Counted from the first letter of the stretch, positions 5,015 to 38,139 are shown. The stretch is DNA of 64,000 bases from an uncultured Chloroflexia bacterium (GCA_963768655.1 CAVYIM010000003.1:672001-736000); one strand, 5' to 3'. Translations and numbers: made by a program. The notes: a model not told the origin generated them from the sequence alone.

Positions 5015-6310
5015 CTATGCGTCCGCCCCGGGCCCAGGCGCAGCGGGCTCCGGCGCATCGGGTTTCGCGGCGCGGCCGCCCTTGCGGGCCATCGGCTGCG
5101 GCTCGAAGGCCGGACCCGGCTCCACTTCCTGGTCCTGGCCGGCCTGAGGCAGACGTGGCGCGCGAATCGGTCTGCCCTCGCGTTCCTCGACGCGGCGCGC
5201 GGCCCGAACGGCCACCGGCTCGACATCGACCCGCATGTGCTTGAGGTAGTAGAAGAAGAACGACGCGATGACCGCGGCGACGGGGATGCCGAAGATCGCG
5301 CCCGGGACGCCGGCCAGCTTGGTGCCGACCATGACCGAGCCCAGGACCACGACCGGATGGAGGCCCACAGCGTCCGCCATCAGGCGTGGCTGGACGATGT
5401 TCATCAGCACGAACCAGCCGGCGACCATGATGATCAACGTCGGCAGGACTGCGTCCGGCAGGAAGAAGATTGCCACGAGGACCGGCGGCATCCACGACAG
5501 GAACGGCCCGAAGAAGGGAATGGCCTGCAGCACGCCCGAGGAAACGGCGGTGACCGGCATGTAGGGCAGGCCGAGCAGCAGGCTGGCGGCCATGGAGACG
5601 GCGCCGTACATCAGCCCCATCAGGGCCTGGCCGCGCAGGAAGCCGCCGAACGAGCGCGAGATGCTGTGCTCGAGCAGCTGGGCTTCGTCCTTGTATGCCG
5701 GAGGAACCAGGCGGAAGAGGAAGCTGACGATCCGGTCTCGGTCGACCGACATGTAGAGTGACAGAAAGAACACGAACAACAGGTTGCCGAAGACGCCCAC
5801 GCTGGCCACGGCGATCTGGCCCAGCGGCTGGGCCAGATCCGCGGCGCCGTTCTTGATGTTCGCCAGCAGCAGGTTGACCTGGTCGTACAGGCTGATCCGG
5901 CTGCCGCCGATCGAGTTGAGCGTGTCCTGGTAGGGCTTGAGGGTGGCACGCAGGTCCAGAGAGTTGAGGCCGGCGAGCAGGCTGTTGATCGACGAATAGA
6001 GCTGCTGCGCCACCAGCAGGATGGCCGTGATAACCACGACGATGAGCAGGGAGTAGACCACGACGACGGCCAGGGCCCTCGGCAGACGCGGGAACAGGTG
6101 GACAAGACCGTTCGCGAGCGGACTCAGGATGAAAGCCAGCAGCCACGCCAGGAAGAAGATCATGATCACGTCGCTGAAGTACGTGATCAGGCTGGCCACG
6201 TCGTACATGACGACGAAGGCGACCGCTACTGTCGCCAGGATGACCAGGGCGGTCAGCCAGCGGTGAAGGCGCGGCGTCATGAAGGCGGCCCTGGAAGGCT
6301 GGTCTGTCAT
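5015..6310 (-). CDS. AI-2E family (UPF0118) transporter
   Basis: Multi-TM protein with FLRGQ, IPFFGP and PRLMADAVGLHP motifs; start placed at MTDQP (6310). Confidence 0.88.
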   Translation of the reverse strand: MTDQPSRAAFMTPRLHRWLTALVILATVAVAFVVMYDVASLITYFSDVIMIFFLAWLLAFILSPLANGLVHLFPRLPRALAVVVVYSLLIVVVITAILLVAQQLYSSINSLLAGLNSLDLRATLKPYQDTLNSIGGSRISLYDQVNLLLANIKNGAADLAQPLGQIAVASVGVFGNLLFVFFLSLYMSVDRDRIVSFLFRLVPPAYKDEAQLLEHSISRSFGGFLRGQALMGLMYGAVSMAASLLLGLPYMPVTAVSSGVLQAIPFFGPFLSWMPPVLVAIFFLPDAVLPTLIIMVAGWFVLMNIVQPRLMADAVGLHPVVVLGSVMVGTKLAGVPGAIFGIPVAAVIASFFFYYLKHMRVDVEPVAVRAARRVEEREGRPIRAPRLPQAGQDQEVEPGPAFEPQPMARKGGRAAKPDAPEPAAPGPGADA

Positions 6311-6437
6311 CGTCCCCTGATCCTCGGCGCGGGCTGACGCCGAGATGGTACGCCCCGGGCGCGCGCAGGTGATGGCCGATCGAGCGTCAGGCTCCGCGGC
6401 CGGCGATCGTCTGGACGAACGCGTCGCAGCCTGAGAC

Positions 6438-7460
6438 CTAGCGCAGGCCCATCCGCTCCCGGACCTCGGCCATGGTCGCCTGGGCGATCGGACGTATCCG
6501 TTCGGCGCCCTCGTCCAGGATGGCTCGCAGCCGCGCCGGGTCGGCCATGAGCTCCCGGTAGGTCTCGCGAGCCGGAGCATAGCGGGCGATGATCCGCTCG
6601 GCCAGCAGCTTCTTCGTGTCGACGCAGCCGGTTCGAGCGTTTCGCTCGCCATCCCAGATCTGCTCGTAGTCGTCGCCGAAGTGGCGGTGCAACTGGCAGA
6701 CGTTGCAGACCTGCGGGCGGCCCGGGTCTGAACGCAGGATGCGCTGCGTGTCGGTGACCATCGACATGACCTGCTTGCGGATGACGTCCGGCTCGGCCAG
6801 GACTTCGATCGTGTTGCCGATCGACTTGCTCATCTTCTTCGCGCCGTCGGTGCCCAGAACTACCGGCGCCTCGGTGTAGACCGCCTGAGGCTCGGGGAAT
6901 GTCTCGCCGTAGCGGGCGTTGAAGGCGCGGACGATCTCGCGGCTCAGCTCGAGGTGGGCGGCCTGGTCCCTGCCGACCGGCACCAGCGAAGCCTTGTAGA
7001 TGACGATGTCGGCCGCCTGAAGGACGGGGTACGTGAGCAGGCCGTGGTTGACGTCCTCGGGCTGGTTCTGGCGCTTCTCCTTGTAGGTCGGAGTGCGCTG
7101 CAGCCAGCCGACCGGCGTCACGGTGTTGAAGAGCCAGCACAGTTCGGTGACTTCCGGCCGATCCGACTGGACGAAGAGCGTGCAGCGCTTTGGGTCCAGG
7201 CCCAGGGCGATGAGGGCGGCCGCCATCTCGAGGGTCTGGCGGCGCAGCACCTCGGGATCGTGGACGTGGGTCAGGGCGTGGTAGTCCACCACGCAGTAGA
7301 TGGCCTCGTACTTCTCCGCGAGCGCCACGTAGTTGCGGATCGCGCCCAGGTCGTTGCCCAGGTGGGGCCGGCCGGTGGGCTGGATGCCGCTGAAGATACG
7401 CGGCTTGACGGGCAGGCTGGACGGTCTGGCGGCTGGGGAGGCGGAGGCTTCGGTAGTCAT
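6438..7460 (-). CDS. trpS: Tryptophan--tRNA ligase
   Basis: FSGIQPTG, HLGN, YPVLQAADI, VPVGRDQ, KMSKS. Confidence 0.96.
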   Translation of the reverse strand: MTTEASASPAARPSSLPVKPRIFSGIQPTGRPHLGNDLGAIRNYVALAEKYEAIYCVVDYHALTHVHDPEVLRRQTLEMAAALIALGLDPKRCTLFVQSDRPEVTELCWLFNTVTPVGWLQRTPTYKEKRQNQPEDVNHGLLTYPVLQAADIVIYKASLVPVGRDQAAHLELSREIVRAFNARYGETFPEPQAVYTEAPVVLGTDGAKKMSKSIGNTIEVLAEPDVIRKQVMSMVTDTQRILRSDPGRPQVCNVCQLHRHFGDDYEQIWDGERNARTGCVDTKKLLAERIIARYAPARETYRELMADPARLRAILDEGAERIRPIAQATMAEVRERMGLR

Positions 7461-7638
7461 GTGGCGAGTTTAGCGGACGGGGCGGCTCGAGCCAGTCGAA
7501 AGCGTGCGCCTCAGAGGGCCGGCTGCGTAATACCATGGCCACGCCCGCAGGAAGCCGGGCGGCGGGCCCCGAGCCGAGATGCCGGTCTCGCGGACATCGT
7601 CCGCACGGCCGGTGGTGGCATGCTTGGAGGGAACTGGA

Positions 7639-23463: not shown

Positions 23464-24630
23464 TCAGTTGCTGGTCCCGTCAGTTGGCCTCGCCCAGTTG
23501 GCCGCGCCCTCAGAACCGGCCGGCTCGCTTCCGGCTTCGGCTGCCTCCGGCAGCGGTGGCGCGCCTACTAGATTGAACCACGGCGCGTAGAGCGTGTCCG
23601 CCTCGTCCGGCTCGAGCAGGTCGCCGACCACCAGCGCCGCGATCGCGTCCGCGAGTGCCGGGCCTGCCATCTGGCGAGTGGCACCCTGGCCGGTCTGACC
23701 GATGAAGCTGGCCGTCTCCTGGAGCCGACCGCCATTGAGCCAGGGGGAGATCTTCTCTTGAGCGCGGCGGACCTGATCGCGCAACTCGGGCTCCTCCTCG
23801 ACGAGTCCGTGGAGGGCGTCGTGGGCCCGCGCCAGATCCTCCGCGGGAGCCTCCCGCCAGCTGCTCACCAGCCGTGTGACCTGCTCGGGCGAGAGCAGCC
23901 ACAGCCGGTTGAGGAAATCGGCGACAGAATCCGTGTTCGGCCCGAACTCGCCCTCGGATTCCTCGTCGTCGTCCGCGCCGTCTTCGACCTCTTCGTCCTC
24001 GACATCGGCGCCGCCGTCGATCTCTTCCACCTCTTCCTGAATCCGGATCTGCTCGACGGCATCGGTCCAAGGCACGAACAACGCCTCGTAGTCCGGCTCC
24101 TCGAGCTCGTCTTCGAGGATGATGCCGGTCGCGGCATCAAGAGCGGCGTCACTCACCTGCGAGCAGATGCGGGCCCAGTTGGGGACTGCCTTTACGTATT
24201 CCGGATACTCCGCCGCGACGGCCAGCCAGGCTCCGATCTCTTCGCGCGCCATCTGGACGTGGCGGGCGATCTCCTCGTCGGTCTCGACCAGCTTCCGGAC
24301 GGCCTTGCGGGCGACGTCTCGATCGGGCCTGGAGGCGCTGCGCCACGCGTCGGCAATCGTCTCAGCGTCGTCCGGGTCGACGTCCTCGAGCCGCTCGAGG
24401 ACTTCCAGCACCTCTTTGGCGTGGGGCCCGTAGAGCCAGACGTCGTTGTCGGCCAGGTAGTCGGCCGCCTGGCTCTCGAGATCGGCGTCCATGTCCTCCG
24501 GCTGGTCGGCGTCGTCGGCGGCATCGCCGTCGGTGTCCTCTTCGGCCTCGGGCGCGTCCTCGGCCTCGACATCGTTGTCGAGGATTTCGCCGGCCCCGTC
24601 GTGGGAGCCTCGGTCGCGTCGCCTGAACAT
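23464..24630 (-). CDS. Acidic hypothetical protein with two (Y/F)GP...PW helical domains (paralogue B)
   Basis: Starts MFRR like paralogue A, GGAGGA RBS; shares EGEFGPN and ADA.AAL...D.LEP..A..LYAPW. Confidence 0.8.
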   Translation of the reverse strand: MFRRRDRGSHDGAGEILDNDVEAEDAPEAEEDTDGDAADDADQPEDMDADLESQAADYLADNDVWLYGPHAKEVLEVLERLEDVDPDDAETIADAWRSASRPDRDVARKAVRKLVETDEEIARHVQMAREEIGAWLAVAAEYPEYVKAVPNWARICSQVSDAALDAATGIILEDELEEPDYEALFVPWTDAVEQIRIQEEVEEIDGGADVEDEEVEDGADDDEESEGEFGPNTDSVADFLNRLWLLSPEQVTRLVSSWREAPAEDLARAHDALHGLVEEEPELRDQVRRAQEKISPWLNGGRLQETASFIGQTGQGATRQMAGPALADAIAALVVGDLLEPDEADTLYAPWFNLVGAPPLPEAAEAGSEPAGSEGAANWARPTDGTSN

Positions 24631-25599: not shown

Positions 25600-26898
25600 A
25601 TGCCCAAACCGCTCGTCGTCCAGAAGTACGGCGGCTCGTCCGTCGCCAACGCAGACCGAATCCGGCGCGTGGCCGCGCGCGTCGCCCGCGAGCGGGCCAG
25701 CGGCTGCGACCTGGTGGTCGTCGTGTCGGCGATGGGCGAGACCACGGACGAGCTGCTCGCCCTGGCGGGCGCCATCACCGACGAGCCGGATGCGCGCGAG
25801 CTCGACATGCTCCTCGCGACCGGAGAGCACCAGAGCGCCACTCTCGTGTCGATGGCCCTGCACGCGCTGGGCGTGCCGGCGATCGCGCTGTCCGGCGCTC
25901 AGGCGGGCATCACTACCGACGGCAACTACGGCAAGGCCCGCATCGCGGGCATCGACCCCAAGCGCATCTTCTCCGAGCTCGAGGCAGGCCGAGTCGTCAT
26001 CGTCGCGGGCTTCCAGGGCCAGAGCGTGCGAGACCCGCATCTGTCCGAGATCACCACGCTGGGCCGCGGCGGCTCGGACACGACCGGCGTCGCGCTTGCG
26101 GCCGCTCTCGAAGCCGACCGCTGCCAGATCTTCACCGACGTTCGGGGCATCTACACCGCCGATCCCCGTCTCGTGCCCGAGGCCCGCCAGCTGCCGGTCA
26201 TCTCGTACGAGGAGATGATGGAGCTGGCGCACCAGGGTGCTCAGGTGATGCAGGTCCGGGCCGTCGAGCTCGGTTGGGTCAACAACGTCGTCATCGAGGT
26301 GCTGAGCTCGTTCGAAGACGTCCCCGGCACGCTGATCAAGGAGGACCCGTTCGTGGAGCAGCGCAACAAGGTTCGCGGGCTGGCCCACGACCGCAACGTG
26401 GCCAAGGTCACACTCGTGGAAGTTCCAGACCGGCCCGGAGTCGCTCACTCGGTCTTCGCGCCGCTGGCCGAGGCGGGCATCAACGTCGACACGATCGTGC
26501 AGAACGTCGGCCATCACGGCACGACGGACCTGAGCTTCACGATCACCCGTGGCGACCTCGCCAAGACCAAGCGCATCCTCGAGCCCATCGTCCGCGAGCT
26601 CGGCTTCCGCGAGATGACCACCGACTCGGCGATGGCGAAAGTGTCGATCGTCGGGGCCGGCATCCAGAACGCGCCGGGCTACGCCTCGCGCATGTTCGCC
26701 GCGCTGGCCGAGGCCGGCGTGAACATCGAGATCATCTCTACCTCGGAGATCCGCATCACCTGCATGATCGCCGAGGACCAGGTCGAGACCGCCGTTCGCG
26801 CCCTGCACAAGGCCTTCGCGCTCGAGGAGCCCGAGCCGCTGGTACAGGACGAAGCTGGAGCGGCGGGCACCGGCGGGGCGACGAAGACGGGCGCGTGA
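25600..26898 (+). CDS. lysC: Aspartate kinase
   Basis: VQKYGGSSV, VVSAMG, TTLGRGGSD, TDVRGIYTADP, two ACT domains. Confidence 0.95.
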   Translation: MPKPLVVQKYGGSSVANADRIRRVAARVARERASGCDLVVVVSAMGETTDELLALAGAITDEPDARELDMLLATGEHQSATLVSMALHALGVPAIALSGAQAGITTDGNYGKARIAGIDPKRIFSELEAGRVVIVAGFQGQSVRDPHLSEITTLGRGGSDTTGVALAAALEADRCQIFTDVRGIYTADPRLVPEARQLPVISYEEMMELAHQGAQVMQVRAVELGWVNNVVIEVLSSFEDVPGTLIKEDPFVEQRNKVRGLAHDRNVAKVTLVEVPDRPGVAHSVFAPLAEAGINVDTIVQNVGHHGTTDLSFTITRGDLAKTKRILEPIVRELGFREMTTDSAMAKVSIVGAGIQNAPGYASRMFAALAEAGVNIEIISTSEIRITCMIAEDQVETAVRALHKAFALEEPEPLVQDEAGAAGTGGATKTGA

Positions 26899-27833
26899 CC
26901 ACGAGCGTCGCGTTTCTCTCGCGACACGAGCGGTTCCGATCGGCCCCTTCCACTAACGACATCGTCCGAAGCTGGCTGATCGCGGGAACCGCCGAGGTCT
27001 GCCTCGCCGTGGCCGGCGAGCAGACTGCCGGTCGCGGGCGGGCCGGTCGATCCTGGGTGGCGCCGAGCGGCGCCGCCCTGCTGCTGTCGCTCGGCTTTCG
27101 GCCGGCCTACCTGGCCGCCGACCGCCTGTGGAGATTGGCCGCGGTGGTTTCGCTGGCGATGGCCGACGCGGCCGAAGAGGTTGCCGGGTTGGCGGTCGGC
27201 AGACTTCGGCTGAAGTGGCCGAATGACATCGTCGTCGAGACGGCAGCGTACACGAGTGGCGCCGTGGGGAGGGGCGCCGTCGCGAGTCGCGCCGCCAGTC
27301 GCGCCACGGAGGGTGGCCATCGAGCGGCGGGCCTTCGCAAGATCGCCGGCGTCCTGGGCGAAACCGAGGGCGCCGGCACGGCCGATGCGCTGGCAATCGT
27401 GGGCATCGGCGTCAACGCCGACTGGCCGCCCGCCCTCTTCCCGGCGGAGCTGGCCAATTCGATGACGAGCCTGCACGAAGTCTCAGGCGGCCGTCGCATC
27501 GACGCCGACCAGCTGCTCGACGCCTTCCTGACGCGCCTGGAACCGCGCATCCTGGCGTTGCGCGACGGCCACTTCGACGTGGCCGGGTGGCACGATCGCC
27601 AGGTGACCACGGGGCGAATTGTTCGACTCGAGATGCATGCCGGGGAAGCAGAGGATCTCCGCGCGGTCGGCGTCGACGGAGCCACGGGGGCGCTGCTGGT
27701 CGAAGACCCGGCCGCTCCCGGCGCGGAGCGCGAGGTTCTGGCGGGGGAGGTTGTCCACGTGCGCCTGGCCGCCGGCGGCGACGCAGCCGAGTCGCGCTCG
27801 CCCGCTCGTGCCCGCCCGGATGTAACGCCGTGA
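26895..27833 (+). CDS. birA: Biotin--[acetyl-CoA-carboxylase] ligase (no N-terminal HTH)
   Basis: STND, QTAGRGR, KWPND, KIAGVL, GIGVN; GTG overlaps the lysC stop. Confidence 0.9.
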   Translation: MTTSVAFLSRHERFRSAPSTNDIVRSWLIAGTAEVCLAVAGEQTAGRGRAGRSWVAPSGAALLLSLGFRPAYLAADRLWRLAAVVSLAMADAAEEVAGLAVGRLRLKWPNDIVVETAAYTSGAVGRGAVASRAASRATEGGHRAAGLRKIAGVLGETEGAGTADALAIVGIGVNADWPPALFPAELANSMTSLHEVSGGRRIDADQLLDAFLTRLEPRILALRDGHFDVAGWHDRQVTTGRIVRLEMHAGEAEDLRAVGVDGATGALLVEDPAAPGAEREVLAGEVVHVRLAAGGDAAESRSPARARPDVTP

Positions 27834-27848
27834 GCCGGCCGGTGTTTA
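27821..27848 (+). promoter_or_regulatory. Putative ECF-type promoter TGTAAC-N16-TGTTTA at the 5' end of the sigma gene
   Basis: AAC -35-like and GTT -10-like elements with ECF spacing, followed by GGAGGAGG. Confidence 0.4.
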
Positions 27849-28480
27849 GCAGTACGGAGGAGGGCGCCCGTCCCGCCCGGCTGGATCGCGACCGCGGTCT
27901 GGTCGAAGCGGCCCGGCGCGATCCCGCCCGTTTCGACGCCCTCTACAGGAAGTACCTCGCCCAGGTGTACAGCTACGCGTACTACGAGCTCCGGGACCAC
28001 CACGCCGCCGAGGACGCCACCGAGCGCGTGTTCATGCAGGCGCTGACCGGGTTGCCGCGCTTCGAGGAGCGGGCCGACTCGTTCATCCGCGCCGGCGGCA
28101 CGGGCGACGCCCCGGCCGATATCCCGGTCGACGCCTCGACCTTCCGCGTCTGGCTGTTCCGCATCGCCCGCAACGTGGTGGCCAACGAGCGCCGGCGCGA
28201 CCGTCGCCGCCCGGTGGCTCCGCTCGAGCAAGCCGTCGGTCTCGCCGCCGCGGACGACATCTTCGAGTCCGCCGCCGCCCACGAGGCCGGCAACGCCGCC
28301 TGGCAGGCGGTCGCGCGCCTGCCGGAGGATCGGCGGCGGGCCGTGGTCCTGCGCTTCGTGGACGAGATGTCGACGGCCGAGATCGCCGAGGTCCTGGGCC
28401 GCTCGGAGGGAGCGGTTCGAGTGCTGCTTCATCGGGCCCTGCGTTCCGTCGCGGCGGATCTGCGCGGGAGGCTGAGCTGA
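27830..28480 (+). CDS. ECF RNA polymerase sigma factor
   Basis: FDALYRKY...AEDATERVF...FRVWLFRIARN; region 4 STAEIAEVLGRSEGAVRVLLHRAL; start uncertain. Confidence 0.9.
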   Translation: MSRPVFSSTEEGARPARLDRDRGLVEAARRDPARFDALYRKYLAQVYSYAYYELRDHHAAEDATERVFMQALTGLPRFEERADSFIRAGGTGDAPADIPVDASTFRVWLFRIARNVVANERRRDRRRPVAPLEQAVGLAAADDIFESAAAHEAGNAAWQAVARLPEDRRRAVVLRFVDEMSTAEIAEVLGRSEGAVRVLLHRALRSVAADLRGRLS

Positions 28481-29082
28481 TGCTGGGCGGCGCGTCGCGG
28501 GACGCCCGTCGGACCGAGCGCTATCTCGACGGCCTGATGGAGGCCGAGGAGCGCGGCGCGGCCGAGGTTCCAATGGATCTCGACCTGGACCCTGCCGTCC
28601 TGCTCGCCGCCAGCGAGTTGCGAGCGAGCCTCGTTCGCGTGCACCCGTCCTTCCGGTTCGAGGAAGGCCTGGCCGCTCGACTGGCGCTGACCGCCGGCGG
28701 GGCTCGGGGAGCGCACAGCAACGAACCGGCGCCGCCCGCAACGGCGTCGATCGCGCCTTTCCGGGTGCCGGGTTTCGCCGCCGGCGACGGCGCAGTCGCG
28801 GCCGATGAACCTGCCGCCACGCGCGACAGCTTCGCCGCCTCCGCGACACCGCATAGACTGTCCCTGACCGCGCGACCCTCTCGCCCGCTCGTCGTTGGCG
28901 GCGTGGGCGTAGCGTCGGCGGCCATATCAATCGGCGCCGTCTACGTTGCCTGGCGATGGTCGCGCGCCTCTCAATCGCCAATGGTTCGCGCCGTGCGTGC
29001 CGGCAGATCCGGCCGCGCATATGCGTCCGGACACGGCCGTCGCGCCGCAGTCCTCCACGGAATCCTCGGAGTGATGCCCTGA
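28480..29082 (+). CDS. Hypothetical protein, putative anti-sigma factor
   Basis: TGATG-coupled to the sigma; HPSFRFEEGL motif and one C-proximal TM helix. Confidence 0.65.
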   Translation: MLGGASRDARRTERYLDGLMEAEERGAAEVPMDLDLDPAVLLAASELRASLVRVHPSFRFEEGLAARLALTAGGARGAHSNEPAPPATASIAPFRVPGFAAGDGAVAADEPAATRDSFAASATPHRLSLTARPSRPLVVGGVGVASAAISIGAVYVAWRWSRASQSPMVRAVRAGRSGRAYASGHGRRAAVLHGILGVMP

Positions 29083-30053
29083 TGCCGGTCCGACTCCCGT
29101 TCCGACCTCGCCGCGATGCCTACCCGCCCGACCTGTGGACCAAGTGCCCCGGCTGCGCGGAGATGCTGTTCAACAAGCAGCTGGACAAGACGCTGCGGGT
29201 CTGCCCGCACTGCGGCCATCACTTCCGCATCTCCGCGAAAGCTCGGATCGAGCAGCTCGTGGATCCCGGATCGTTCGTAGAGCGAGACGCGGACCTGACG
29301 CCCGTCGACGCCCTCGAGTTCGTGGACCTCAAGACCTACCCCGATCGACTCATGGCCGCCCAGCTCGCCACCGGACTGCGCGACGCCGCGATCTGGGGGC
29401 TGGCGGCGATGGGCGGCAAGACGATCTCGATGTGCGTCATGGACTTCGGCTTCATCGGCGGCTCGATGGGCTCCGTCATGGGCGAAAAGGTGGCCCGCGC
29501 CGGCGAGGCCGCTCTCGCCGAGCGCATCCCGCTCCTGATCGTCTCGTCGTCCGGCGGGGCCAGGATGCAGGAAGGCACCTATTCGCTGATGCAGCTCGTC
29601 AAGACGATGAGCGTGATGGAGCGCCTCAGGGCGGCGCGCGTGCCCTTCATCTCCGTCATGACGGACCCAACGACGGGTGGCGTATTCGCGTCGTTCGCGG
29701 TGGTCGGCGACGTCAACCTGGCCGAGCCCAACGCCCTTATCCGCTTCGCCGGAGACCGTGTCTCGGCCGGGACCATCGGCGAGGAGCTGCCGCCCGGCTA
29801 TGCGCGCGCCGAGTTCTGGTTCAGCCACGGGTTCGTCGACCGGATCGTGCCTCGAGCGCGACTCAGGGACGAGATCATCGCGTTGCTCGGGTTCCTCAGC
29901 GCTCCCACGAACGGCCACGCCGAGCCGCCCGGCCCGACGTCCCGGTCGCGGTCGTTCCTCAATGCCCTCACCGGAGCGCGCAACGCCGAGGGCAACGGCA
30001 AATCCCGCGCCCCCGAAGCGGGGCAGGCTCGCGGAGGGGCCACCAATGGTTGA
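29082..30053 (+). CDS. accD: Acetyl-CoA carboxylase carboxyltransferase beta subunit
   Basis: LWTKCPGC...CPHC zinc finger, FIGGSMG, SGGARMQEG, PTTGG. Confidence 0.95.
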   Translation: MPVRLPFRPRRDAYPPDLWTKCPGCAEMLFNKQLDKTLRVCPHCGHHFRISAKARIEQLVDPGSFVERDADLTPVDALEFVDLKTYPDRLMAAQLATGLRDAAIWGLAAMGGKTISMCVMDFGFIGGSMGSVMGEKVARAGEAALAERIPLLIVSSSGGARMQEGTYSLMQLVKTMSVMERLRAARVPFISVMTDPTTGGVFASFAVVGDVNLAEPNALIRFAGDRVSAGTIGEELPPGYARAEFWFSHGFVDRIVPRARLRDEIIALLGFLSAPTNGHAEPPGPTSRSRSFLNALTGARNAEGNGKSRAPEAGQARGGATNG

Positions 30054-31032
30054 CCGACTTCTGGGTCGGCACGGACCGGGCGAAGCCCGCGCGGAGGACC
30101 CGGCCGCGGCGGTGTGGGCCCACGTCCAGCAGGCGCGCAACCTCAAGCGCCCGCACACTCTGGAACTGGTCAGAGCCATCGCCGACGAATTCATCGAGCT
30201 GCACGGCGACCGGCTCTTCGGCGACGACACGGCGATCGTCGCCGGCCTGGCGCGCATCGCCGGCCGCCGCGTCGTGGTGATCGGCTTCCAGAAGGGCCAG
30301 GACACCGAGGAGAACATCCGGCGCAACTTCGGCCTGCCGCATCCCGAGGGCTACCGCAAGGCGATGCGGGTCATGGATCTGGCCGAACGCTTCGCCATGC
30401 CGGTGCTCACCTTCGTCGACGTCCAGGGTGCGTTCCCCGGCGCGGCGGCCGAGGAGCGAGGCATCGCCGAGGCGATCGCGAAATCCGTCGGGATGTTGTC
30501 TCGCCTGCGGACCCCGGTCGTCGTCGTGATCACCGGCGAGGGTGGCTCGGGAGGAGCGCTTGGACTCGCCGTCGGCGACACGATCATCGCCCTGGAGAAC
30601 TCGATCTACTCCGTCATCAGCCCCGAGGGCTGCGCCACCATCCTGTGGCGCTCCGGCGAGCAGAGCCACCAGGCCGCGATGGCGATGAAGGTCACCGCCA
30701 ACGAGCAGCAGGAGCTGGGCATCGTCGACATCGTCATCCCCGAACCTGGCGAGGGCGCCCACACCGATCCGGCCGAGACTGCCAGGCGGATAAAAGAGGT
30801 CGTCCTGGAGCGGTTCGACGTCCTGGGCCGCATCCCGCTCGACGAGCTCGTGGAGGCCCGTTTCAAGAAGTTCCGGGTCATGGGCCCCTATGTCGTCGCC
30901 GACCGCCCGGCGCCGCCGCCGGAGCGGACCGGCATCACCGACAGGCTGCGGGGCCTGCTCTCGAACATGCCGTCGATGCCGTCCCTGCCCGGTACCAGGC
31001 GCGACGTGCCGCCCGGCCGGGAGGAGGTCTAG
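30046..31032 (+). CDS. accA: Acetyl-CoA carboxylase carboxyltransferase alpha subunit
   Basis: ELHGDR, NFGLPHPEGYRKA, GEGGSGGA, YSVISPEG. Confidence 0.95.
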   Translation: MVDRLLGRHGPGEARAEDPAAAVWAHVQQARNLKRPHTLELVRAIADEFIELHGDRLFGDDTAIVAGLARIAGRRVVVIGFQKGQDTEENIRRNFGLPHPEGYRKAMRVMDLAERFAMPVLTFVDVQGAFPGAAAEERGIAEAIAKSVGMLSRLRTPVVVVITGEGGSGGALGLAVGDTIIALENSIYSVISPEGCATILWRSGEQSHQAAMAMKVTANEQQELGIVDIVIPEPGEGAHTDPAETARRIKEVVLERFDVLGRIPLDELVEARFKKFRVMGPYVVADRPAPPPERTGITDRLRGLLSNMPSMPSLPGTRRDVPPGREEV

Positions 31033-31035
31033 CCG

Positions 31036-31728
31036 ATGCCGGCACATCGAAACGGCCCGACCGGCACGTCCGGACACGCCGCCGGAGCCACGTCAGGAGC
31101 CACGTCCGGAGCGCGCGCCAGAGGCCTGGACGCGCGCACGGAACGAGACCACGCGGCCATCTCCGATCTGGCCGACGATCTACTCCCGGCCCTAATCGCC
31201 AAGCTGGCCGCCAGCGGACTCGGCGAGATCGAGGTCCGCGAAGGGGAGTGGAAGGCTCGCCTACGCAAGCCTTCCGGGATCGACGACCGCAAGGGATCCG
31301 GACACGGCCCCGGGGAGGGGCACTCCGGCTACGGCCATGCCACGAGCCGCGGCCCGGCCGCGAGCGCCGGCCGCACCGTCGCCGAGGAGCGCGAGCGGCT
31401 CGCCCGCGAGGGGGAAGAGGCCCGGCAGGCGGCCAACCTGCCGATCGTGGCCATCTCTCCCGCGGTCGGGATCTTTCAGCCGCGCAAGGACCTGGCCGCC
31501 GGGATGAGGGTCCGCGCCGGCGATCGCCTTGGCACGGTGGACGTGCTCGGCGTGCGTGAGGACGTGGTTGCGCCGATGGACGGCGTAGTCGGGCCGAGCC
31601 TGGCCGAGGCCGGAGAGGCCGTCGAGTACGGACAGGAGCTGATTCGGATCGAGCTGCCGGAGAACTCTCGCAGTCTCGAAGTCAACGGCGCGGACCGCGA
31701 GGCGGCCGCCGTCCTCGGGGAAGCCTGA
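31036..31728 (+). CDS. BCCP-like biotinyl/lipoyl-domain protein lacking the biotinylated lysine (BADC-like)
   Basis: AccB-type N-terminus (LIAKLAASGLGEIEVREG) and C-terminal domain (SPAVGIF...GDRLGTVDVLGV...GEAVEYGQELIRIE) with DVLG in place of EAMK. Confidence 0.8.
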   Translation: MPAHRNGPTGTSGHAAGATSGATSGARARGLDARTERDHAAISDLADDLLPALIAKLAASGLGEIEVREGEWKARLRKPSGIDDRKGSGHGPGEGHSGYGHATSRGPAASAGRTVAEERERLAREGEEARQAANLPIVAISPAVGIFQPRKDLAAGMRVRAGDRLGTVDVLGVREDVVAPMDGVVGPSLAEAGEAVEYGQELIRIELPENSRSLEVNGADREAAAVLGEA

Positions 31729-33092
31729 TGTTCAGCAAGATCCTGATCGCCAATCGGGGCGAAATCGCCCTCCGGGTCCTGCGCGCTTGCCGGACCCTCG
31801 GAGTCGGGGCGGTGGTCGCCTACAGCGAGGCCGATCGCGACAGCCTGGCCGCCCAGCTCGCCGACGAGGCGATCTGCATCGGCCCGGCGGACGCGCGGCG
31901 CAGCTACCTGTCGGCCCCGGCCGTGATCTCGGCCGCGGTCGTGACCGGCTGCGACGCGATCCATCCCGGCTACGGGTTCCTGTCCGAGGATGCGGGCTTC
32001 GCCGACGTCGTCCGTGCCCACGGCCTGACCTTCATCGGCCCGCCCGCCGAGGTGCTCGAGCGTTTCGCCTCCAAGGAGGCGACCCGGCGCCTGCTCGAGG
32101 CCCACGGCCTGCGCACCATTCCGGGCTCCGGCATGCTGCGCGACGAGGCCCATGCTCTCGATGAGGCCGAACGCATCGGGTTCCCGGTGCTGATCAAGCC
32201 CTCCGCGGGCGGCGGCGGCAAGGGAATGCGCCTGGTCAGGTCCCCGCGCGAACTCGAGACCTCGTTCAAGGTCAGCCGCTCCGAGGCCAAGGCCGGGTTC
32301 GGCGACGACTCGCTCTACCTGGAGAAGTACCTCGACGACAACCGCCACGTGGAGATCCAGGTGGCGGTCGACCGTTTCGGACACGCCGTCCACATGGGCG
32401 AGCGGGACTGCTCCGTGCAGCGCCGCCACCAGAAGATCCTCGAGGAGACGCCCAGCCCGGCCCTGACCGAGGCGGCCCGGCAGGAGCTCTGCGCGCGGGC
32501 CGTTCGGGCGGTCGTCGAGGCCGGCTACGAGAACCTCGGCACGCTGGAATTCCTGATCGACGCCAGGGGCGAGGCCTACTTCATCGAGATCAACTGCCGC
32601 GTCCAGGTCGAGCACCCGATCACGGAGATGTGCACCGGCATCGACATGGTCGCGTTGCAGATCAAGATCGCGGCCGGCGAGCCGTTGGGCATGACCCAGG
32701 CGGACGTCGTCTCCACCGGCCACGCCATCGAGTTCCGCATCCTGGCCGAGGATCCGAGTCACGACTTCCGGCCGCAGTCCGGCCAGGTGCTCGGCTACCT
32801 GGCCCCGGGCGGGCCGGGCGTCCGCATGGATACGCACATCTACCCCGGCTACGAAGTGCCGTCCTACTACGACTCGCTATTGGGCAAGCTCTCCGTCTGG
32901 GCGCCCGATCGGGCCGGGGCGATCGCCCGCGGCGACGCCGCGCTGCGCGAGCTGCTCGTGGACGGCCTGACCACCAACATCGACCTCCACCGGGCGATCC
33001 TCGCCAATGAGGTCTTCATCGACGGCAAGGTGACGACGAGCCTGCTCGACCGCGTCGGCAGCGACCCGTTCGTAGCCGCCGGCAACCGCTGA
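31728..33092 (+). CDS. accC: Biotin carboxylase
   Basis: ILIANRGEIA, IHPGYGFLSE, GGGGKGM, RDCSVQRRHQK, RVQVEH, YDSLLGK. Confidence 0.96.
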   Translation: MFSKILIANRGEIALRVLRACRTLGVGAVVAYSEADRDSLAAQLADEAICIGPADARRSYLSAPAVISAAVVTGCDAIHPGYGFLSEDAGFADVVRAHGLTFIGPPAEVLERFASKEATRRLLEAHGLRTIPGSGMLRDEAHALDEAERIGFPVLIKPSAGGGGKGMRLVRSPRELETSFKVSRSEAKAGFGDDSLYLEKYLDDNRHVEIQVAVDRFGHAVHMGERDCSVQRRHQKILEETPSPALTEAARQELCARAVRAVVEAGYENLGTLEFLIDARGEAYFIEINCRVQVEHPITEMCTGIDMVALQIKIAAGEPLGMTQADVVSTGHAIEFRILAEDPSHDFRPQSGQVLGYLAPGGPGVRMDTHIYPGYEVPSYYDSLLGKLSVWAPDRAGAIARGDAALRELLVDGLTTNIDLHRAILANEVFIDGKVTTSLLDRVGSDPFVAAGNR

Positions 33093-33114
33093 CCGCCAGC
33101 CCGAGGAGCCGCCC

Positions 33115-33588
33115 GTGCCCGAGAACGCCGCACCGAACGCGCCCATCCTGACCACTCGCCAGATCGAGCAGCTGATCCCGCACCGCTGGCCGTTCCTGCT
33201 CGTCGACCGGATCGTCGAATACGACGCGGCGGCCAAACAAATCGTCGGCCTCAAGTCGGTGACCGCGACCGAGTGGTTCTTCCAGGGTCACTTCCAGGGC
33301 CAGCCGATCATGCCCGGTGTGCTCCAGGTCGAGGCTCTGGCTCAGACCATGGGTGTCTACGTCGCCCAGCAGCCCGGCTTCGGCGATCGGCTCGGGCTCT
33401 TCGCCGCGATCGACGAGTGCCGCTTCAAGCACATCGTCACGCCCGGCGATCAGCTCCGCCTCGAAGTCACGATGGAGCGCCTGGGCAGCAAGTTCGGCCG
33501 CGGCAAGGGCGTCGCCACGGTCAACGGCGAAGTCGCCTGCGAGGCTCTCCTGAGCTTCATCATCGCCCCCGAGAGCGCGCTACGCTGA
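33115..33588 (+). CDS. fabZ: 3-hydroxyacyl-ACP dehydratase
   Basis: IPHRWPFLLVDR, FQGHF, MPGVLQVEALAQ. Confidence 0.95.
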   Translation: MPENAAPNAPILTTRQIEQLIPHRWPFLLVDRIVEYDAAAKQIVGLKSVTATEWFFQGHFQGQPIMPGVLQVEALAQTMGVYVAQQPGFGDRLGLFAAIDECRFKHIVTPGDQLRLEVTMERLGSKFGRGKGVATVNGEVACEALLSFIIAPESALR

Positions 33589-34331
33589 TGGTCCGAATCG
33601 CTGCGCTGTCCGACGTTCACGGCAACCTGCCGGCCCTGCAGGAGGTGCGCAAGGCCGTCGATGCGGCTCGCCCGGACTACGTGGCGATCTGCGGCGACCT
33701 GGTCTTCAACGGCCCGGATCCCGCCGGGACGGTGGATCTGGTCCGCGAGCTCGAGCGGGCCGGCGCATTCGTCATCTGCGGCAATACGGATCTGGCCGTA
33801 ACCGACGGCGACTACACGGCCTCGTTCCCGTGGTTCACCGAGGGCGCGCCCGAGTCTTACCGGGTTGCCGCCGAGTGGGCGCGCGATCAGCTCGGCGACG
33901 AGCGGGTCGACTACCTGCGCCACCTGCCCTGGGAGCGCCGGCTGCGGATCGACGACACGCTCGTGCTGTTCTGCCACGCTTCTCCGGGATCGCTGACGGA
34001 TGGCCTGCCGGCCGACCTCGATCCGGTTGTCACGATCGACCGCGTTGGCAGGACCGACGCATCGGTGATCGTCTGCGGCCACACCCACGTGCCCGAGATC
34101 CGCGAGATTGGCTGGCGCACGCTGGTCAACGACGGCAGCGCCGGCTACGTCTTCGATGGCGATCCGGCGGCGAGCTGGGCGCTCATCGAGATCGACGAGG
34201 GCCAGGTCAAGGCCGAGATCCAGCGCACCGGCTACGACGTCATGGCGGCGGCGAACGCGGTTTCCGCGCGCGGCCTCCCGGGCGACGTGTACAGGGCCGC
34301 CACAATTCGCACGGGGAAGCTAGTCCGATGA
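33588..34331 (+). CDS. Metallophosphoesterase (calcineurin-like)
   Basis: DVHGN, GDLV, GNTD, CHASP, GHTH motifs. Confidence 0.9.
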   Translation: MVRIAALSDVHGNLPALQEVRKAVDAARPDYVAICGDLVFNGPDPAGTVDLVRELERAGAFVICGNTDLAVTDGDYTASFPWFTEGAPESYRVAAEWARDQLGDERVDYLRHLPWERRLRIDDTLVLFCHASPGSLTDGLPADLDPVVTIDRVGRTDASVIVCGHTHVPEIREIGWRTLVNDGSAGYVFDGDPAASWALIEIDEGQVKAEIQRTGYDVMAAANAVSARGLPGDVYRAATIRTGKLVR

Positions 34332-35590
34332 GTACCTATGCTGCGCCCCGAGTCGTCGTGACGGGCATGGGCGCCATCACTGCGCTGGGCCTCGACGTTG
34401 CCACCGCCTGGGACGGGCTGGTCGCAGGCCGCTCCGGCGTGGCCACGATCACGCAGTTCGATCCCTCGCGCCTGACCACCCGCATCGGCGCCGAGGTCAA
34501 GGGCTTCGATCCCTCCGCCGTCCTCGACCGCAAGGAGCAGCGGCGCAACGATCGCTACGTCCAGTTCGCGCTCGTCGCGGCCCGCCAGGCGATGGATCAG
34601 GCGGGGCTGCCGGCTCGACTCGAAGGCGAAGAGGCGGAGCGGACCGGGGTCGTGATCGGGACCGGCATCGGCGGCATCCAGACCCTCGCCGAGCAGGTGC
34701 TGCTGATGGGCGAGCGCGGGCCCGGCCGCATGTCGCCCTTCCTGATCCCGATGGCCATCAGCAACCTCGCCGCCGGCGTGACGGCCATCACTTTCGGCCC
34801 CAAGGGCCCCAACTTCAGCGTCGTTTCGGCCTGCGCCACCGGCGGACACTCCATTGGCGAGGCCTGGGAGATCATCCGACGAGGCGACGCCGACGTGATG
34901 CTGGCAGGCGGCGCGGAAGCGACGATGCACGAGGCACTGGTCGGTGGCTTCGCGGCGATGCGGGCGCTCTCGACCCGCAACGACGAGCCGGAGCGGGCGT
35001 CGCGGCCCTTCGACCGGCATCGCGACGGATTCGTCATCGGCGAGGGCTGCGGCATCGTCATCCTGGAGGCCCTCGACCACGCTCGAGCTCGTGGCGTCGA
35101 GCCGCTGGCCGAGATGGTGGGTTACGGCGCCACGGCCGACGCCTCTCACATCACGCTCCCGGCTCCCGGCGGGGCGGGCGCTGTGCGGGCCATCCGCCGC
35201 GCGCTCGAGAAGGCCCACCTGAGCGTGGACGACGTGGCGATGGTCAATGCCCACGCCACTTCCACACCCGAGGGCGACCCGCGCGAGCTCGAAGCCATGC
35301 GCACGCTCTTCGGCGACCGAGCCGGTCGGGTGAGCATCACCGCCAACAAGAGCATGATCGGGCACACCCTAGGTGCCGCCGGCGCGATCGAGGCGATCGC
35401 CACGGTCATGAGCGTCCGCACCGGCATCGTGCCGCCGACCATCAACCTCGAAGAGCCCGACGAAGCGGCGGCCGGGCTCGACCTGACTCCGGGCCGGGCG
35501 CGCCGGCGCGAGATCGAGGTCGCCGTCTCCAATTCCTTCGGCTTCGGTGGACAGAACAGCGCCGTCGTCTTCCGGCGCTGGAACGAGTAG
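34328..35590 (+). CDS. fabF: 3-oxoacyl-ACP synthase II
   Basis: RVVVTGMG, SACATG (Cys), HATST, GHTLGAAG, NSFGFGG. Confidence 0.96.
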   Translation: MSTYAAPRVVVTGMGAITALGLDVATAWDGLVAGRSGVATITQFDPSRLTTRIGAEVKGFDPSAVLDRKEQRRNDRYVQFALVAARQAMDQAGLPARLEGEEAERTGVVIGTGIGGIQTLAEQVLLMGERGPGRMSPFLIPMAISNLAAGVTAITFGPKGPNFSVVSACATGGHSIGEAWEIIRRGDADVMLAGGAEATMHEALVGGFAAMRALSTRNDEPERASRPFDRHRDGFVIGEGCGIVILEALDHARARGVEPLAEMVGYGATADASHITLPAPGGAGAVRAIRRALEKAHLSVDDVAMVNAHATSTPEGDPRELEAMRTLFGDRAGRVSITANKSMIGHTLGAAGAIEAIATVMSVRTGIVPPTINLEEPDEAAAGLDLTPGRARRREIEVAVSNSFGFGGQNSAVVFRRWNE

Positions 35591-35601
35591 AGGGCGCGAC
35601 G

Positions 35602-36162
35602 ATGGCTGAGCAAGGCAAGAAACTGGGGATGCCCGCCGAGTCCGAGCCGTCGACGGGCGCCGAGCCCGAGCAGCCGGCAGCCGAGGATCCCTCCCTGTCG
35701 GCCGAGGCCGCCTCGTTGCTGGGCCTGATCGACAAGCTGAGCTCGCTCCTGGAGAAGAGCGATCTGGTCGAGCTCGAAGTGCAGGCCGGCGAATCCGCCA
35801 TCGTCCTGCGAAAGCCCGCGGCATTGCTGCCAGCCGCCGCCGCCCCGGCCGCCGCCGCCCCCGTCGCCGGACCGGATCCAGCCGGAGCGGCAGCCGCGGC
35901 CGAGCCTGCCGTGCCGGCCTCGGCGGCCAGGGCCGTTCGCGCCCCGCTGACGGGAATCTTCTACGCTGCCTCGTCCCCGAGCGCGCCGCCGTACGTCAAG
36001 GTAGGCCAGCAGGTCGCCGTCGGCCAGATCATCGGCCTCATCGAAGCCATGAAGCTGTTCAACGAGATCAAGTCCGACGCCTCCGGCAGAATCGTGCGCA
36101 TCGTGGCCGAGACCGGCAAGCTGGTGAAGGCAAAGCAGCCGCTGATCGAGGTTGAACCGTAA
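35602..36162 (+). CDS. accB: Biotin carboxyl carrier protein (canonical)
   Basis: IEAMKLFNEI with the biotin lysine at 36052-36054; thumb loop SSPSAPPY; Ala/Pro linker. Confidence 0.93.
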   Translation: MAEQGKKLGMPAESEPSTGAEPEQPAAEDPSLSAEAASLLGLIDKLSSLLEKSDLVELEVQAGESAIVLRKPAALLPAAAAPAAAAPVAGPDPAGAAAAAEPAVPASAARAVRAPLTGIFYAASSPSAPPYVKVGQQVAVGQIIGLIEAMKLFNEIKSDASGRIVRIVAETGKLVKAKQPLIEVEP

Positions 36163-37304
36163 TGGCCGGGTCCGTGCACGGGACTCGCGTCACCGGGTGG
36201 GGAGCCTACGCGCCGAGCCTCGTCCTGACCAACGCCGACATGGAGAAGATGGTCGAGACCTCGGACGAGTGGATCGTCAGCCGCACCGGGATCTGCGAGC
36301 GCCGCATTGCCGGACCGGGCGAGACCACGGCCAGCATGGCGGCCGTGGCCGGTCTGCGAGCGATTGCCGTAGCCGGGCTCCAGCCCGACGACATCGACCT
36401 GATCCTGGTCGGGACGCTCACCGCGGACTATCCGATGCCGTCCGCCGCGGCCCTCGTGAAGGACGCGATCGGCAACAAGCGCGCGGCGGCCATGGATCTC
36501 GCGGCGGCCTGCTCCGGGTTCGTCTACGGCTACGCCACCGCCCACGCCTACATCGCCAGCGGCATGGCGCGACACGTCCTGGTGATCGGCGCGGAGACAC
36601 TCAGCCGCTACACGGATTGGACCGATCGGGGGACGTGCATTCTCTTCGGCGACGGAGCAGGCGCGGCCGTCCTGTCGGCCTCGGACGAGCCAGGTGGAAC
36701 GCTGGGCATCGAGATGACGACCGAACCCGCGGGCGCCTACTTCATCTGGCTGCCGGCCGGCGGGGCGGCTCGACCGGCGAGCAACGCCACGCTCGGGAAT
36801 CGCGAGCACTACATGAGGATGAAGGGCAGCGAGACCTTCAAGATGGCCGTCCGAACTCTCGGATCGACCTCGATCAAGGCTCTCGAGAAGGCGGGCCTCG
36901 GCCTGCCTGACGTTGACCTCGTCATCCCGCATCAGGCCAACATCCGGATCATCGAGGCCCTGGCGAAGTCGCTGGATTTCCCGATGGCGCGAGTCTTCGT
37001 CAACGTCGACCGCTACGGCAACACCTCGGCCGCGTCGGTGCCGCTGGCCCTTTCGGAGGCCGTCGCCTCCGGCAGGGTCAAGAAGGGCGATCACATCCTG
37101 CTCGTGGCCTTCGGCGCTGGGCTCACATCCGGGGCTATAGCGCTGGAGTGGACGGCCGATCCGGCCGCCTCGGCCAGGGCCGACGCCATCGATCCCGGCG
37201 AAGTCACCATCCTGCCCGGTTACCTCGGGCCGGTCGACCCGTTCCCACCCGCCCTGGAGTGGCTCCGCGCCGGCTCCGGCTCGGTCACCCCGGGCAAGAG
37301 TTGA
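36162..37304 (+). CDS. fabH: 3-oxoacyl-ACP synthase III
   Basis: TSDEWI..RTGI, AACSGF, PHQAN, GNTSAAS. Confidence 0.95.
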   Translation: MAGSVHGTRVTGWGAYAPSLVLTNADMEKMVETSDEWIVSRTGICERRIAGPGETTASMAAVAGLRAIAVAGLQPDDIDLILVGTLTADYPMPSAAALVKDAIGNKRAAAMDLAAACSGFVYGYATAHAYIASGMARHVLVIGAETLSRYTDWTDRGTCILFGDGAGAAVLSASDEPGGTLGIEMTTEPAGAYFIWLPAGGAARPASNATLGNREHYMRMKGSETFKMAVRTLGSTSIKALEKAGLGLPDVDLVIPHQANIRIIEALAKSLDFPMARVFVNVDRYGNTSAASVPLALSEAVASGRVKKGDHILLVAFGAGLTSGAIALEWTADPAASARADAIDPGEVTILPGYLGPVDPFPPALEWLRAGSGSVTPGKS

Positions 37305-37389
37305 TCCAGGCGGCTCATCAACGACGCAATCGGCGCTCCGCCGAACGGGGCGCCGGCCACGCAGGCACGCGAATGCGAGGAGGAAGACC

Positions 37390-38139
37390 ATGATCGATCT
37401 GTCCGGCAAGACCGCCCTTGTCACCGGCGGCGCACGTGGCATCGGCAAGGCTATCTGCCTGAACCTGGCCAGGCAGGGCGCCGACGTCGCCTTCGTGGAC
37501 GTCGGCCGGCCCGAGGTCGCCGAGGCCACCGTGGCCGAGATCGAGGCCCTCGGGCGCAAGGCGCTCTACATCCCGGCGGACGTCACGGACCCGGAGGCCT
37601 GCGTCAAGGCCGTCGCGGCGACGGTCGAGGCCTTCGGCAAGATCGACATCCTGGTCAACAACGCCGGCATCACCCGCGACGACCTGATCATGAGAATGCC
37701 CATCGACGACTGGAAGAAGGTCCTCGAGGTCAATCTCTTCGGCGCCTTCTACATGATCAAAGCCGCCATCCGTCCGATGCTCAAGGCCCATGCCGGTCGG
37801 ATCATCAACATGTCGAGCGTCTCGGGCCAGGCCGGCCAGATGGGCCAGGCCAACTACTCGTCGTCAAAGGCAGGTCTGATCGGGCTCACGAAGGCGACCG
37901 CCCGTGAGGTCGCGTCGCGTGGCATAACCTGCAATGCCGTCGCACCGGGGTTCGTCGTCACCGAGCTCACCAGGGACCTGCCGGCCAGCCTGACCGACCA
38001 GATCAAGGCTCAGACGCCGCTGGGCCGTTTCGGCACGGTCGAAGAGATCGCGTCGGCGGTGACGTTCCTCGCGTCCGACGAAGCCGGGTACATCACCGGC
38101 CAGGTCCTCGCCGTGGACGGCGGCCTGGTGATGCAGTAA
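37390..38139 (+). CDS. fabG: 3-oxoacyl-ACP reductase
   Basis: TGGARGIG, NNAGITRD, YSSSK, NAVAPG. Confidence 0.94.
   Translation: MIDLSGKTALVTGGARGIGKAICLNLARQGADVAFVDVGRPEVAEATVAEIEALGRKALYIPADVTDPEACVKAVAATVEAFGKIDILVNNAGITRDDLIMRMPIDDWKKVLEVNLFGAFYMIKAAIRPMLKAHAGRIINMSSVSGQAGQMGQANYSSSKAGLIGLTKATAREVASRGITCNAVAPGFVVTELTRDLPASLTDQIKAQTPLGRFGTVEEIASAVTFLASDEAGYITGQVLAVDGGLVMQ

Follow-up and report, generated by a model that had tools for sequence, protein, structure and literature searches.

The gene at positions 31036-31728 of the 64,000-nucleotide (nt) stretch CAVYIM010000003.1:672001-736000 from an uncultured Chloroflexia bacterium (the window, meaning that whole stretch) encodes a conserved paralogue of the biotin carboxyl carrier protein (BCCP, the accB product) that has no biotin-accepting lysine and is tied to the genes of acetyl-CoA carboxylase (ACC). 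This gene, designated X here, belongs to the ACC operon; it is real and strongly conserved, and the bacterial pseudo-BCCP that it encodes appears not to have been described before. It lies between accA and accC, with its stop codon overlapping the accC start in the sequence TGATG. The original prediction, which had likened X to the plant BADC proteins, described this arrangement and placed a canonical EAMK-type accB at 35602 in the same operon. The open reading frame (ORF), the Pfam matches of accA and accC, the overlap, and the second accB, with its IEAMKL sequence and a TIGR00531 score above the cut-off, are all found. The functional claim for X rests on anatomy, synteny, and analogy, which together suggest with moderate confidence that X is a noncatalytic ACC subunit made together with biotin carboxylase (BC).

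X has the anatomy of a BCCP, an N-terminal motif, a linker, and a biotinyl-type barrel. The TIGR00531 model aligns with residues 52 to 206 of X over positions 8 to 155 of 156 (28.1 bits; cut-off, 115.2), and a profile of the X family matches the full-length Escherichia coli BCCP (4HR7_B) with E=3.5e-14. Comparison of the family with 26 canonical AccBs of Chloroflexota by hhalign gives a probability of 99.2% (E=1.7e-19) over 139 columns. Direct BLASTP of X against the window AccB finds the N-terminal motif only, with 13/30 identities (E=0.015); the invariant columns in the alignment of this motif are P51, L53, L57, L62-E66, and R75. In the barrel, the sequence V-D-V-L-G-V (residues 168 to 173) aligns with E-A-M-K-M of the solved BCCPs, and G172 occupies the column of the biotinyl lysine. 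Compared with E. coli BCCP and with canonical Chloroflexota AccB, X has a thumb shortened by 6 residues. These alignments bear out the earlier description of an AccB-like N-terminal segment joined to a biotinyl-type domain, with a shortened thumb loop and with D-V-L-G (D169-G172) in place of E-A-M-K exactly at 31540-31551.

The Biotin_lipoyl model (PF00364) matches 66/67 family members at E<=0.01, and some relatives, such as the one at locus L112 (39.1 bits), pass its gathering threshold. Neither Pfam nor NCBIfam contains an X-specific model, and the best curated match is BCCP for each of the 67 members. An RND/HlyD adaptor domain was considered as an alternative identity and rejected, because of these BCCP matches in 67/67 members, the BCCP-specific N-terminal motif, and the lack of adaptor architecture. 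Comparison of 103 X linkers with 63 canonical AccB linkers gives median lengths of 59 and 42 amino acids (aa), Ala-plus-Pro fractions of 0.28 and 0.47, and Asp-Glu-Lys-Arg fractions of 0.31 and 0.11, respectively. Being longer and charged and not Ala/Pro-rich, the X linker is unlike a swinging arm. At the C terminus, a tail ending in NG-ADREAAAVLGEA is near-invariant in the closest subclade and swapped or absent in the remoter members; it may represent a short binding peptide or reflect a constraint from the accC ribosome-binding site.

The loss of the acceptor lysine is a stable property of the family. A word-indexed search found 3588 proteins at E<=1e-3 among the 8000 candidates scored; the 120 closest among those listed all lack the lysine and carry V[DN]VLGV (85 with Asp and 35 with Asn). 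When 1.84 billion cluster representatives (50% identity) were searched exhaustively with a profile, 7896 matched at E<=1e-3, of which 890 reached E<=1e-10 and 141 reached E<=1e-30. Of the best 150 representatives, 149 conform to the tip pattern [VI][DEN]xLG[VILM], in which L171 and G172 do not vary and Gly stands in the column of the lysine; the remaining one ends before the tip. X is matched in 40/41 relatives (the window genome included), and the sole miss is a genome that is 77% complete. The expectation that relatives would also be lysine-less and that the gene would not be sporadic is thus borne out, with no lysine in 120 homologues, 149 readable representatives, and 80 genome loci, and with the gene present in all of these 80 loci as well as in the 40 relatives.

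Estimates of the ratio of nonsynonymous to synonymous substitution rates (dN/dS) by the Nei-Gojobori method, from 21 pairs of the 7 closest loci (20 pairs for the disordered N terminus), indicate purifying selection in both folded parts, with values of 0.11 to 0.12; Table 1 gives the values for each region. In line with the original prediction, X is therefore not evolving neutrally. The G+C contents of X at the three codon positions are 0.79, 0.56, and 0.84, and the third-position value (0.835) is close to that of accB (0.86), which, together with the dN/dS in the folded parts, indicates that the ORF is more than a chance one. In the 63 genomes that have both genes, the mean pairwise identities of the N-terminal motif and the barrel are 0.77 and 0.68 in X and 0.72 and 0.75 in true AccB, so that constraint is about equal in the pseudo-carrier and the true carrier.

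A decaying accB duplicate without function would explain the lost catalytic lysine, the shortened thumb, and the scores under the curated cut-offs. Such decay is highly improbable, given a dN/dS of 0.11 in both folded parts, a frame intact in 80/80 loci, and a replacement motif that is invariant in at least 141 clusters at 50% identity. Furthermore, X is kept in three to four families of its class, reduced genomes among them, and its tree mirrors that of AccB. The argument made earlier against simple decay, from the intact frame and the multicodon replacement, holds across these loci.

The genomic context of X is equally well conserved. A scan of one genome per species yielded 410 pattern matches, 312 of which encode a relative; the following locus figures refer to the best 80. 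All 80 come from metagenome-assembled genomes (MAGs) labelled Chloroflexota/Chloroflexi or assigned to their subgroups (Limnocylindria/Limnocylindrales, Chloroflexia, and Anaerolineaceae), and in each of them the lysine-less gene follows accD/accA. Of the 78 loci that extend 200 nt or more downstream, 76 have the accC start no more than 120 nt from X and 59 have the TGATG overlap. An EAMK-type AccB is also encoded in 60/61 loci with at least 5.2 kb downstream, usually in the order fabF-accB-fabH. At the genus level, a motif search found X in 19/20 loci, with the TGATG overlap with accC in 19/19. With 312 independent species genomes, mis-assembly of the homologues, the one circumstance that would revive the decay reading, is implausible. 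Eight long proteins (P0345-P0352; 509 to 874 aa) in which X is joined to AccA or AccC were considered as natural fusions and rejected; all are singletons with frameshifted-looking junctions and tails, and they probably arose through misassembly at the TGATG overlap. Database entries for X relatives read “biotin carboxyl carrier protein” or “hypothetical protein,” so annotation pipelines may mistake X for a functional AccB.

A profile search of 401 Chloroflexota genomes (of which the unpublished G184, G264, G308, and G211 enter the overall counts only) shows that the X family spans the class Limnocylindria; accA-X-accC is the Limnocylindria arrangement. The best E values range from 1e-50 to 1e-65 in the family of the window (1e-34 in one genome), from about 1e-39 to 1e-41 in a sister family whose genomes measure ~1.1 Mb, from 1e-28 to 1e-46 in a third family, and from 1e-17 to 1e-21 in a fourth; beyond the class, they are no better than 2e-25. 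The tips and gene orders that follow are those of example loci retrieved for each group. In the family with reduced genomes, the tip is VDVLGV or VEVLGI, an EAMKL-type AccB is also encoded, and the gene order is the same. Loci L021 to L025 (genomes G025, G035, G028, G027, and G032; ~1.0 to 1.4 Mb) retain an X of ~157 aa, without the long N terminus and the tail, along with the EAMKL accB; at L021, a single 659-aa ORF (5595-7574, minus strand), possibly a fusion, takes up the place of accD/accA. The third family has tips VDVLGV, VEMLGV, and VEVLGV and the order accD-accA-X-accC-fabZ-fabF-accB-fabH-fabG. In the fourth family, VQSLG[AH] is found after accD-accA, and fabD and unassigned sequence precede accC. 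At L107 (6216-10690) of this family, fabD (PF00698) and ~1.2 kb without a Pfam match separate X (VQSLGH) from accC; no alignment of the N-terminal BCCP motif was obtained at this locus.

The family reaches beyond the accA-X-accC context, a point absent from the original prediction. Outside the class, three of the top matches are canonical (IEAMKI or IEAMKM) and five are lysine-less (VEVLGI, VDVLGV, VETLGI, IESLNV, and VEVLRM). Four of these five genes lie directly downstream of pepP-efp, away from the acc genes (Table 1). The fifth, at L118 (3990-~4430, minus strand), has Lys replaced by Arg (VEVLRM); pepP adjoins it, and no efp match is found there. The L113 gene, with Lys replaced by Asn, pairs in the tree with a canonical AccB, which makes it look like a separate loss. 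In the genomes G199, G135, G325, and G241 (the L118 genome), each with a lysine-less copy, a canonical IEAMKV or IETMKI AccB adjoins fabF (L123, L124, L126, and L127); fabH is also found in two of them. Possession of two BCCP-type genes, one of them lysine-less, is thus widespread in Chloroflexota. The named matches for the efp-linked group are from Chloroflexota/Chloroflexi MAGs, and the Protein Atlas neighbours of the close homologue P0008 are all Chloroflexota “hypothetical protein” clusters. One protein of the remoter P0336-P0344 group, P0343 (197 aa, VDVLGV), is labelled “Candidatus Caenarcaniphilales,” which could be a mis-binned contig or a hint of occurrence outside the phylum.

Because the efp-linked copies sit away from the acc genes, X might also have a role outside ACC catalysis, such as transcriptional autoregulation through its AccB-type N-terminal motif or an interaction with a non-ACC partner. 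The N-terminal motif is the best conserved part of X, and a role of the E. coli AccB N terminus in repression is mentioned in PMC11160672. However, the barrel is as constrained as this motif (dN/dS, 0.111), which would be needless in a pure DNA or RNA regulator, and the synteny with accA and accC and the coupling are near universal in the class. The efp link itself may be historical, since in L108 and L109 the position downstream of efp is taken by a canonical IEAMKI accB. A role of this kind is accordingly rated as quite improbable.

In a tree of 90 rows and 106 columns (tip columns removed; a quick IQ-TREE search without an outgroup from other phyla), 63 lysine-less rows, with L113 left out, lie across one branch from 26 canonical rows (SH-aLRT, 94). 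Two changes of the lysine/no-lysine label suffice on this tree, and the data, which come from few columns, are compatible with a single early origin of the lysine-less family. One clade (SH-aLRT, 98) unites the canonical AccBs of three Limnocylindria families, and the lysine-less genes of the same three families form matching clades (98 to 100) that mirror the AccB tree. The duplication leading to X and AccB therefore predates the three families.

Biotin protein ligase is known to modify only the lysine at the hairpin (see also the K553A result in PMC11077971). With the acceptor lysine absent, X cannot be the carrier and should be neither biotinylated nor able to shuttle CO2. The window genome (88.6% complete) encodes one biotin carboxylase (a single PF02785 match) and one canonical BCCP; its remaining biotinyl/lipoyl matches are X itself and three located elsewhere (contigs C4 and C5). 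In the proposed mechanism, X would be produced in step with the sole biotin carboxylase from the TGATG-coupled accA-X-accC, and its conserved N-terminal helix-hairpin motif would assemble together with the corresponding motif of AccB, with BC, or with both. The barrel of X would take up, without turnover, a site at which BCCP docks on BC or AccD, and the chemistry would be performed by the EAMK-bearing AccB from the fabF-accB-fabH part of the cluster. In E. coli, the first ~30 residues of BCCP are described as an alpha/beta/beta oligomerising motif in the core of the ACC tubes, with the BCCP barrel parked at a noncatalytic site on BC and the AccD N terminus (PMC11160672). By analogy, the N-terminal motif of X might correspond to this oligomerising element. 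Conservation of the DxLG tip suggests a specific docking place that the hairpin still uses.

The same BCCP anatomy could also serve a competitive negative regulator, in which X and holo-AccB would compete for BC or for a place in the N-terminal oligomer; ACC flux would be lowered, and the X:AccB ratio would set the activity. Much like a pseudo-substrate, the tip lacks the lysine but has preserved the shape of the hairpin along with the acidic and hydrophobic residues of EAMKM, and plant BADCs were first described as inhibitors, according to PMC11926652 and PMC12873504. However, translational coupling of an inhibitor 1:1 to its target and its retention in every genome, even in those of 1.1 Mb, would be an odd design. 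Nor is there a separate regulatory signal: terminator-like sites are at the level of chance (3, versus 3.4 expected from shuffles), promoter-like sites number 0, and Rfam gives 0 matches between positions 24000 and 41000. Later plant work leans to an assembly role, as presented in PMC11926652. Competitive inhibition is therefore considered unlikely. A constitutive scaffold or “parked BCCP” role, variants included, is the more probable one and is favoured with moderate confidence, as X is coupled to catalytic genes and universally retained.

Several points weigh against this noncatalytic-subunit reading. X itself scores under both the Pfam and NCBIfam cut-offs (for PF00364, 19.3 bits versus the gathering threshold of 22.1), and its whole-gene pairwise dN/dS of 0.25 to 0.35 is above that of accC (0.07 to 0.27). 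In other Chloroflexota classes, the related lysine-less gene is found downstream of efp and not near acc genes. The literature on plant BADC, from which the analogy is drawn, is split between an inhibitor and a glue (PMC11926652 and PMC12873504). In its broadest form, the proposal is that X, fixed in accA-X-accC in Limnocylindria and efp-linked elsewhere, could be an ancient dead-carrier subunit of ACC, an obligate structural part that fills the noncatalytic BCCP parking site on BC/AccD or the core of the N-terminal oligomer, and a bacterial invention convergent with BADC. This broader proposal is put forward tentatively.

The genes around X form a co-directional, tightly packed cluster at 29082-38139 that comprises accD, accA, X, accC, fabZ, a metallophosphoesterase gene, fabF, accB, fabH, and fabG, with intergenic gaps of -8 to +22 nt as far as fabH and of 85 nt ahead of fabG (Table 1). 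The metallophosphoesterase gene, of the calcineurin-like type, overlaps fabZ and fabF by 1 to 4 nt on each side, and its place is kept in most of the 80 loci. The 5′ end of accD overlaps the upstream ORF by 1 nt. Directly upstream of accD, the region 26895-29082 contains three ORFs, the ends of which are 8 nt apart or overlap by 1 nt. They encode a biotin protein ligase-like protein (PF03099, with a GRGRxGRxW-type motif; putative start), an extracytoplasmic function-type sigma factor (Sigma70_r2 and Sigma70_r4; putative start), and a 200-aa protein without a Pfam match that may be an anti-sigma factor.

Table 1. Genes and sequence elements of the acc-fab cluster, regions of X, and efp-linked lysine-less relatives
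Feature	Position	Strand	Evidence and remarks	dN/dS
accD (carboxyltransferase beta, N-terminal Zn ribbon)	29082..30053	+	PF17848 Zn_ribbon_ACC and PF01039; start placed at MPVRLPFRP	
accA (carboxyltransferase alpha)	30046..31032	+	PF03255 ACCA, 373.6 bits; chosen start; 8-nt overlap with accD	
Shine-Dalgarno-like GGAGGAGG	31020..31027	+	Read from sequence; 8 nt before the X ATG	
X, 230 aa, ATG start	31036..31728	+	3 nt beyond the accA stop (31030-31032)	
X, disordered N terminus				0.62
X, N-terminal BCCP-type motif, residues 37-79: helix LLPALIAKLAASGL, then hairpin GEIEVREGEWKARLRK	31144..31272	+	BLASTP to window AccB; aligns to E. coli BCCP N terminus	0.118
X, variable charged His/Gly-rich linker, residues 80-134	31273..31437	+		0.48
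X, biotinyl-type barrel without acceptor lysine, residues 135-207	31438..31656	+	PF00364, 19.3 bits; BCCP alignments	0.111
X, hairpin tip D-V-L-G replacing E-A-M-K, D169-G172	31540..31551	+	Alignments to solved BCCPs	
X, C-terminal tail ending ADREAAAVLGEA, residues 208-230	31657..31725	+	Alignment; kept in closest subclade only	0.159
TGATG stop/start overlap of X and accC	31726..31730	+	X TGA at 31726-31728, accC ATG at 31728-31730	
accC (biotin carboxylase)	31728..33092	+	PF02786, PF00289, PF02785	
fabZ	33115..33588	+	PF07977	
Metallophosphoesterase gene	33588..34331	+	PF12850	
fabF	34328..35590	+	PF00109, PF02801	
Canonical accB (BCCP), IEAMKL, K151 at 36052-36054	35602..36162	+	TIGR00531, 121.5 bits (cut-off 115.2); PF00364, 54.3 bits	
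fabH	36162..37304	+	PF08541, PF08545	
fabG	37390..38139	+	PF13561	
efp-linked lysine-less gene, tip VEVLGI	L111:5760-6218		Downstream of pepP(M24)-efp	
efp-linked lysine-less gene, tip VDVLGV	L112:5812-6261		Downstream of pepP(M24)-efp	
efp-linked lysine-less gene, tip IESLNV	L113:6079-6606	-	Downstream of pepP(M24)-efp	
efp-linked lysine-less gene, tip VETLGI	L119:6513-6965	-	Downstream of pepP(M24)-efp	

Heteromeric ACC, which carries out the committed step of fatty acid synthesis, serves as a target of both antibiotics and metabolic engineering. A literature search found no description of a bacterial lysine-less BCCP paralogue; supplements were outside its scope, and a prior mention elsewhere is possible. 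In the literature found, nonbiotinylated BCCP-like subunits come up solely in connection with the plastids of plants and algae, with a dispute between inhibitor and assembly roles. If X acts as proposed, the pseudo-carrier solution evolved outside plastids as well, and the recruitment of inactivated BCCP paralogues, whether for assembly or for control, would be a recurrent feature of heteromeric ACCs. The simple prokaryotic operon of four or five genes would then be a system for settling the glue-versus-inhibitor dispute on BADC.

Among known systems, X resembles canonical AccB/BCCP (TIGR00531; 4HR7_B and 1BDO) in its succession of N-terminal motif, linker, and barrel, in its full-length alignment, and in its place directly upstream of accC, the classical one for accB. 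It differs from canonical AccB in the missing acceptor lysine, the thumb shorter by 6 residues, the charged linker, and the score of 28.1 bits against a cut-off of 115.2. With the RND/HlyD barrel-sandwich hybrids, X shares a lysine-less lipoyl/biotinyl-like fold, with weak HlyD_3 matches and PF25917 (BSH_RND) among the precomputed domains. Unlike these adaptors, it has a BCCP-specific N-terminal motif and no adaptor architecture. In the same phylum, BC1 of Chloroflexus aurantiacus (PDB 8HZ4) is reported to be a BC-BCCP fusion in which a BCCP-type β-hairpin drives BC tetramerisation (PMC11077971). BC1 thus provides an example of rearranged BCCP modules in the ACCs of Chloroflexota, although it is a fusion with a functional EAMKM lysine, whereas X is separate and lysine-less. 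The AccE epsilon subunits of actinobacteria are not known to be BCCP homologues; X is proposed to be, like them, a noncatalytic subunit. AccE is described as a small, noncatalytic protein that is said to “glue” the acyl-CoA carboxylase holoenzyme (PMC11926652).

Like plant BADC1-3, X is a BCCP homologue without the biotinyl lysine that coexists with a true BCCP; unlike them, it is bacterial, encoded in an operon between accA and accC, and coupled to accC. BADC reportedly arose in algae and is not known from prokaryotes. The plant proteins are described as lysine-less BCCP homologues that, beside true BCCP, bind BC and BCCP and act on heteromeric ACCase (PMC11926652, PMC11889953, and PMC12873504). 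BADC is also said to be without the biotinylated loop (bioRxiv 10.64898/2025.12.30.697075), whereas X retains a hairpin with the conserved tip DVLG. The BADC-like label of the original prediction thus stands as an analogy, that of a lysine-less BCCP homologue beside a true BCCP, and does not extend to the loss of the loop. By this analogy, X would be a functional counterpart of plant BADC, probably of independent origin.

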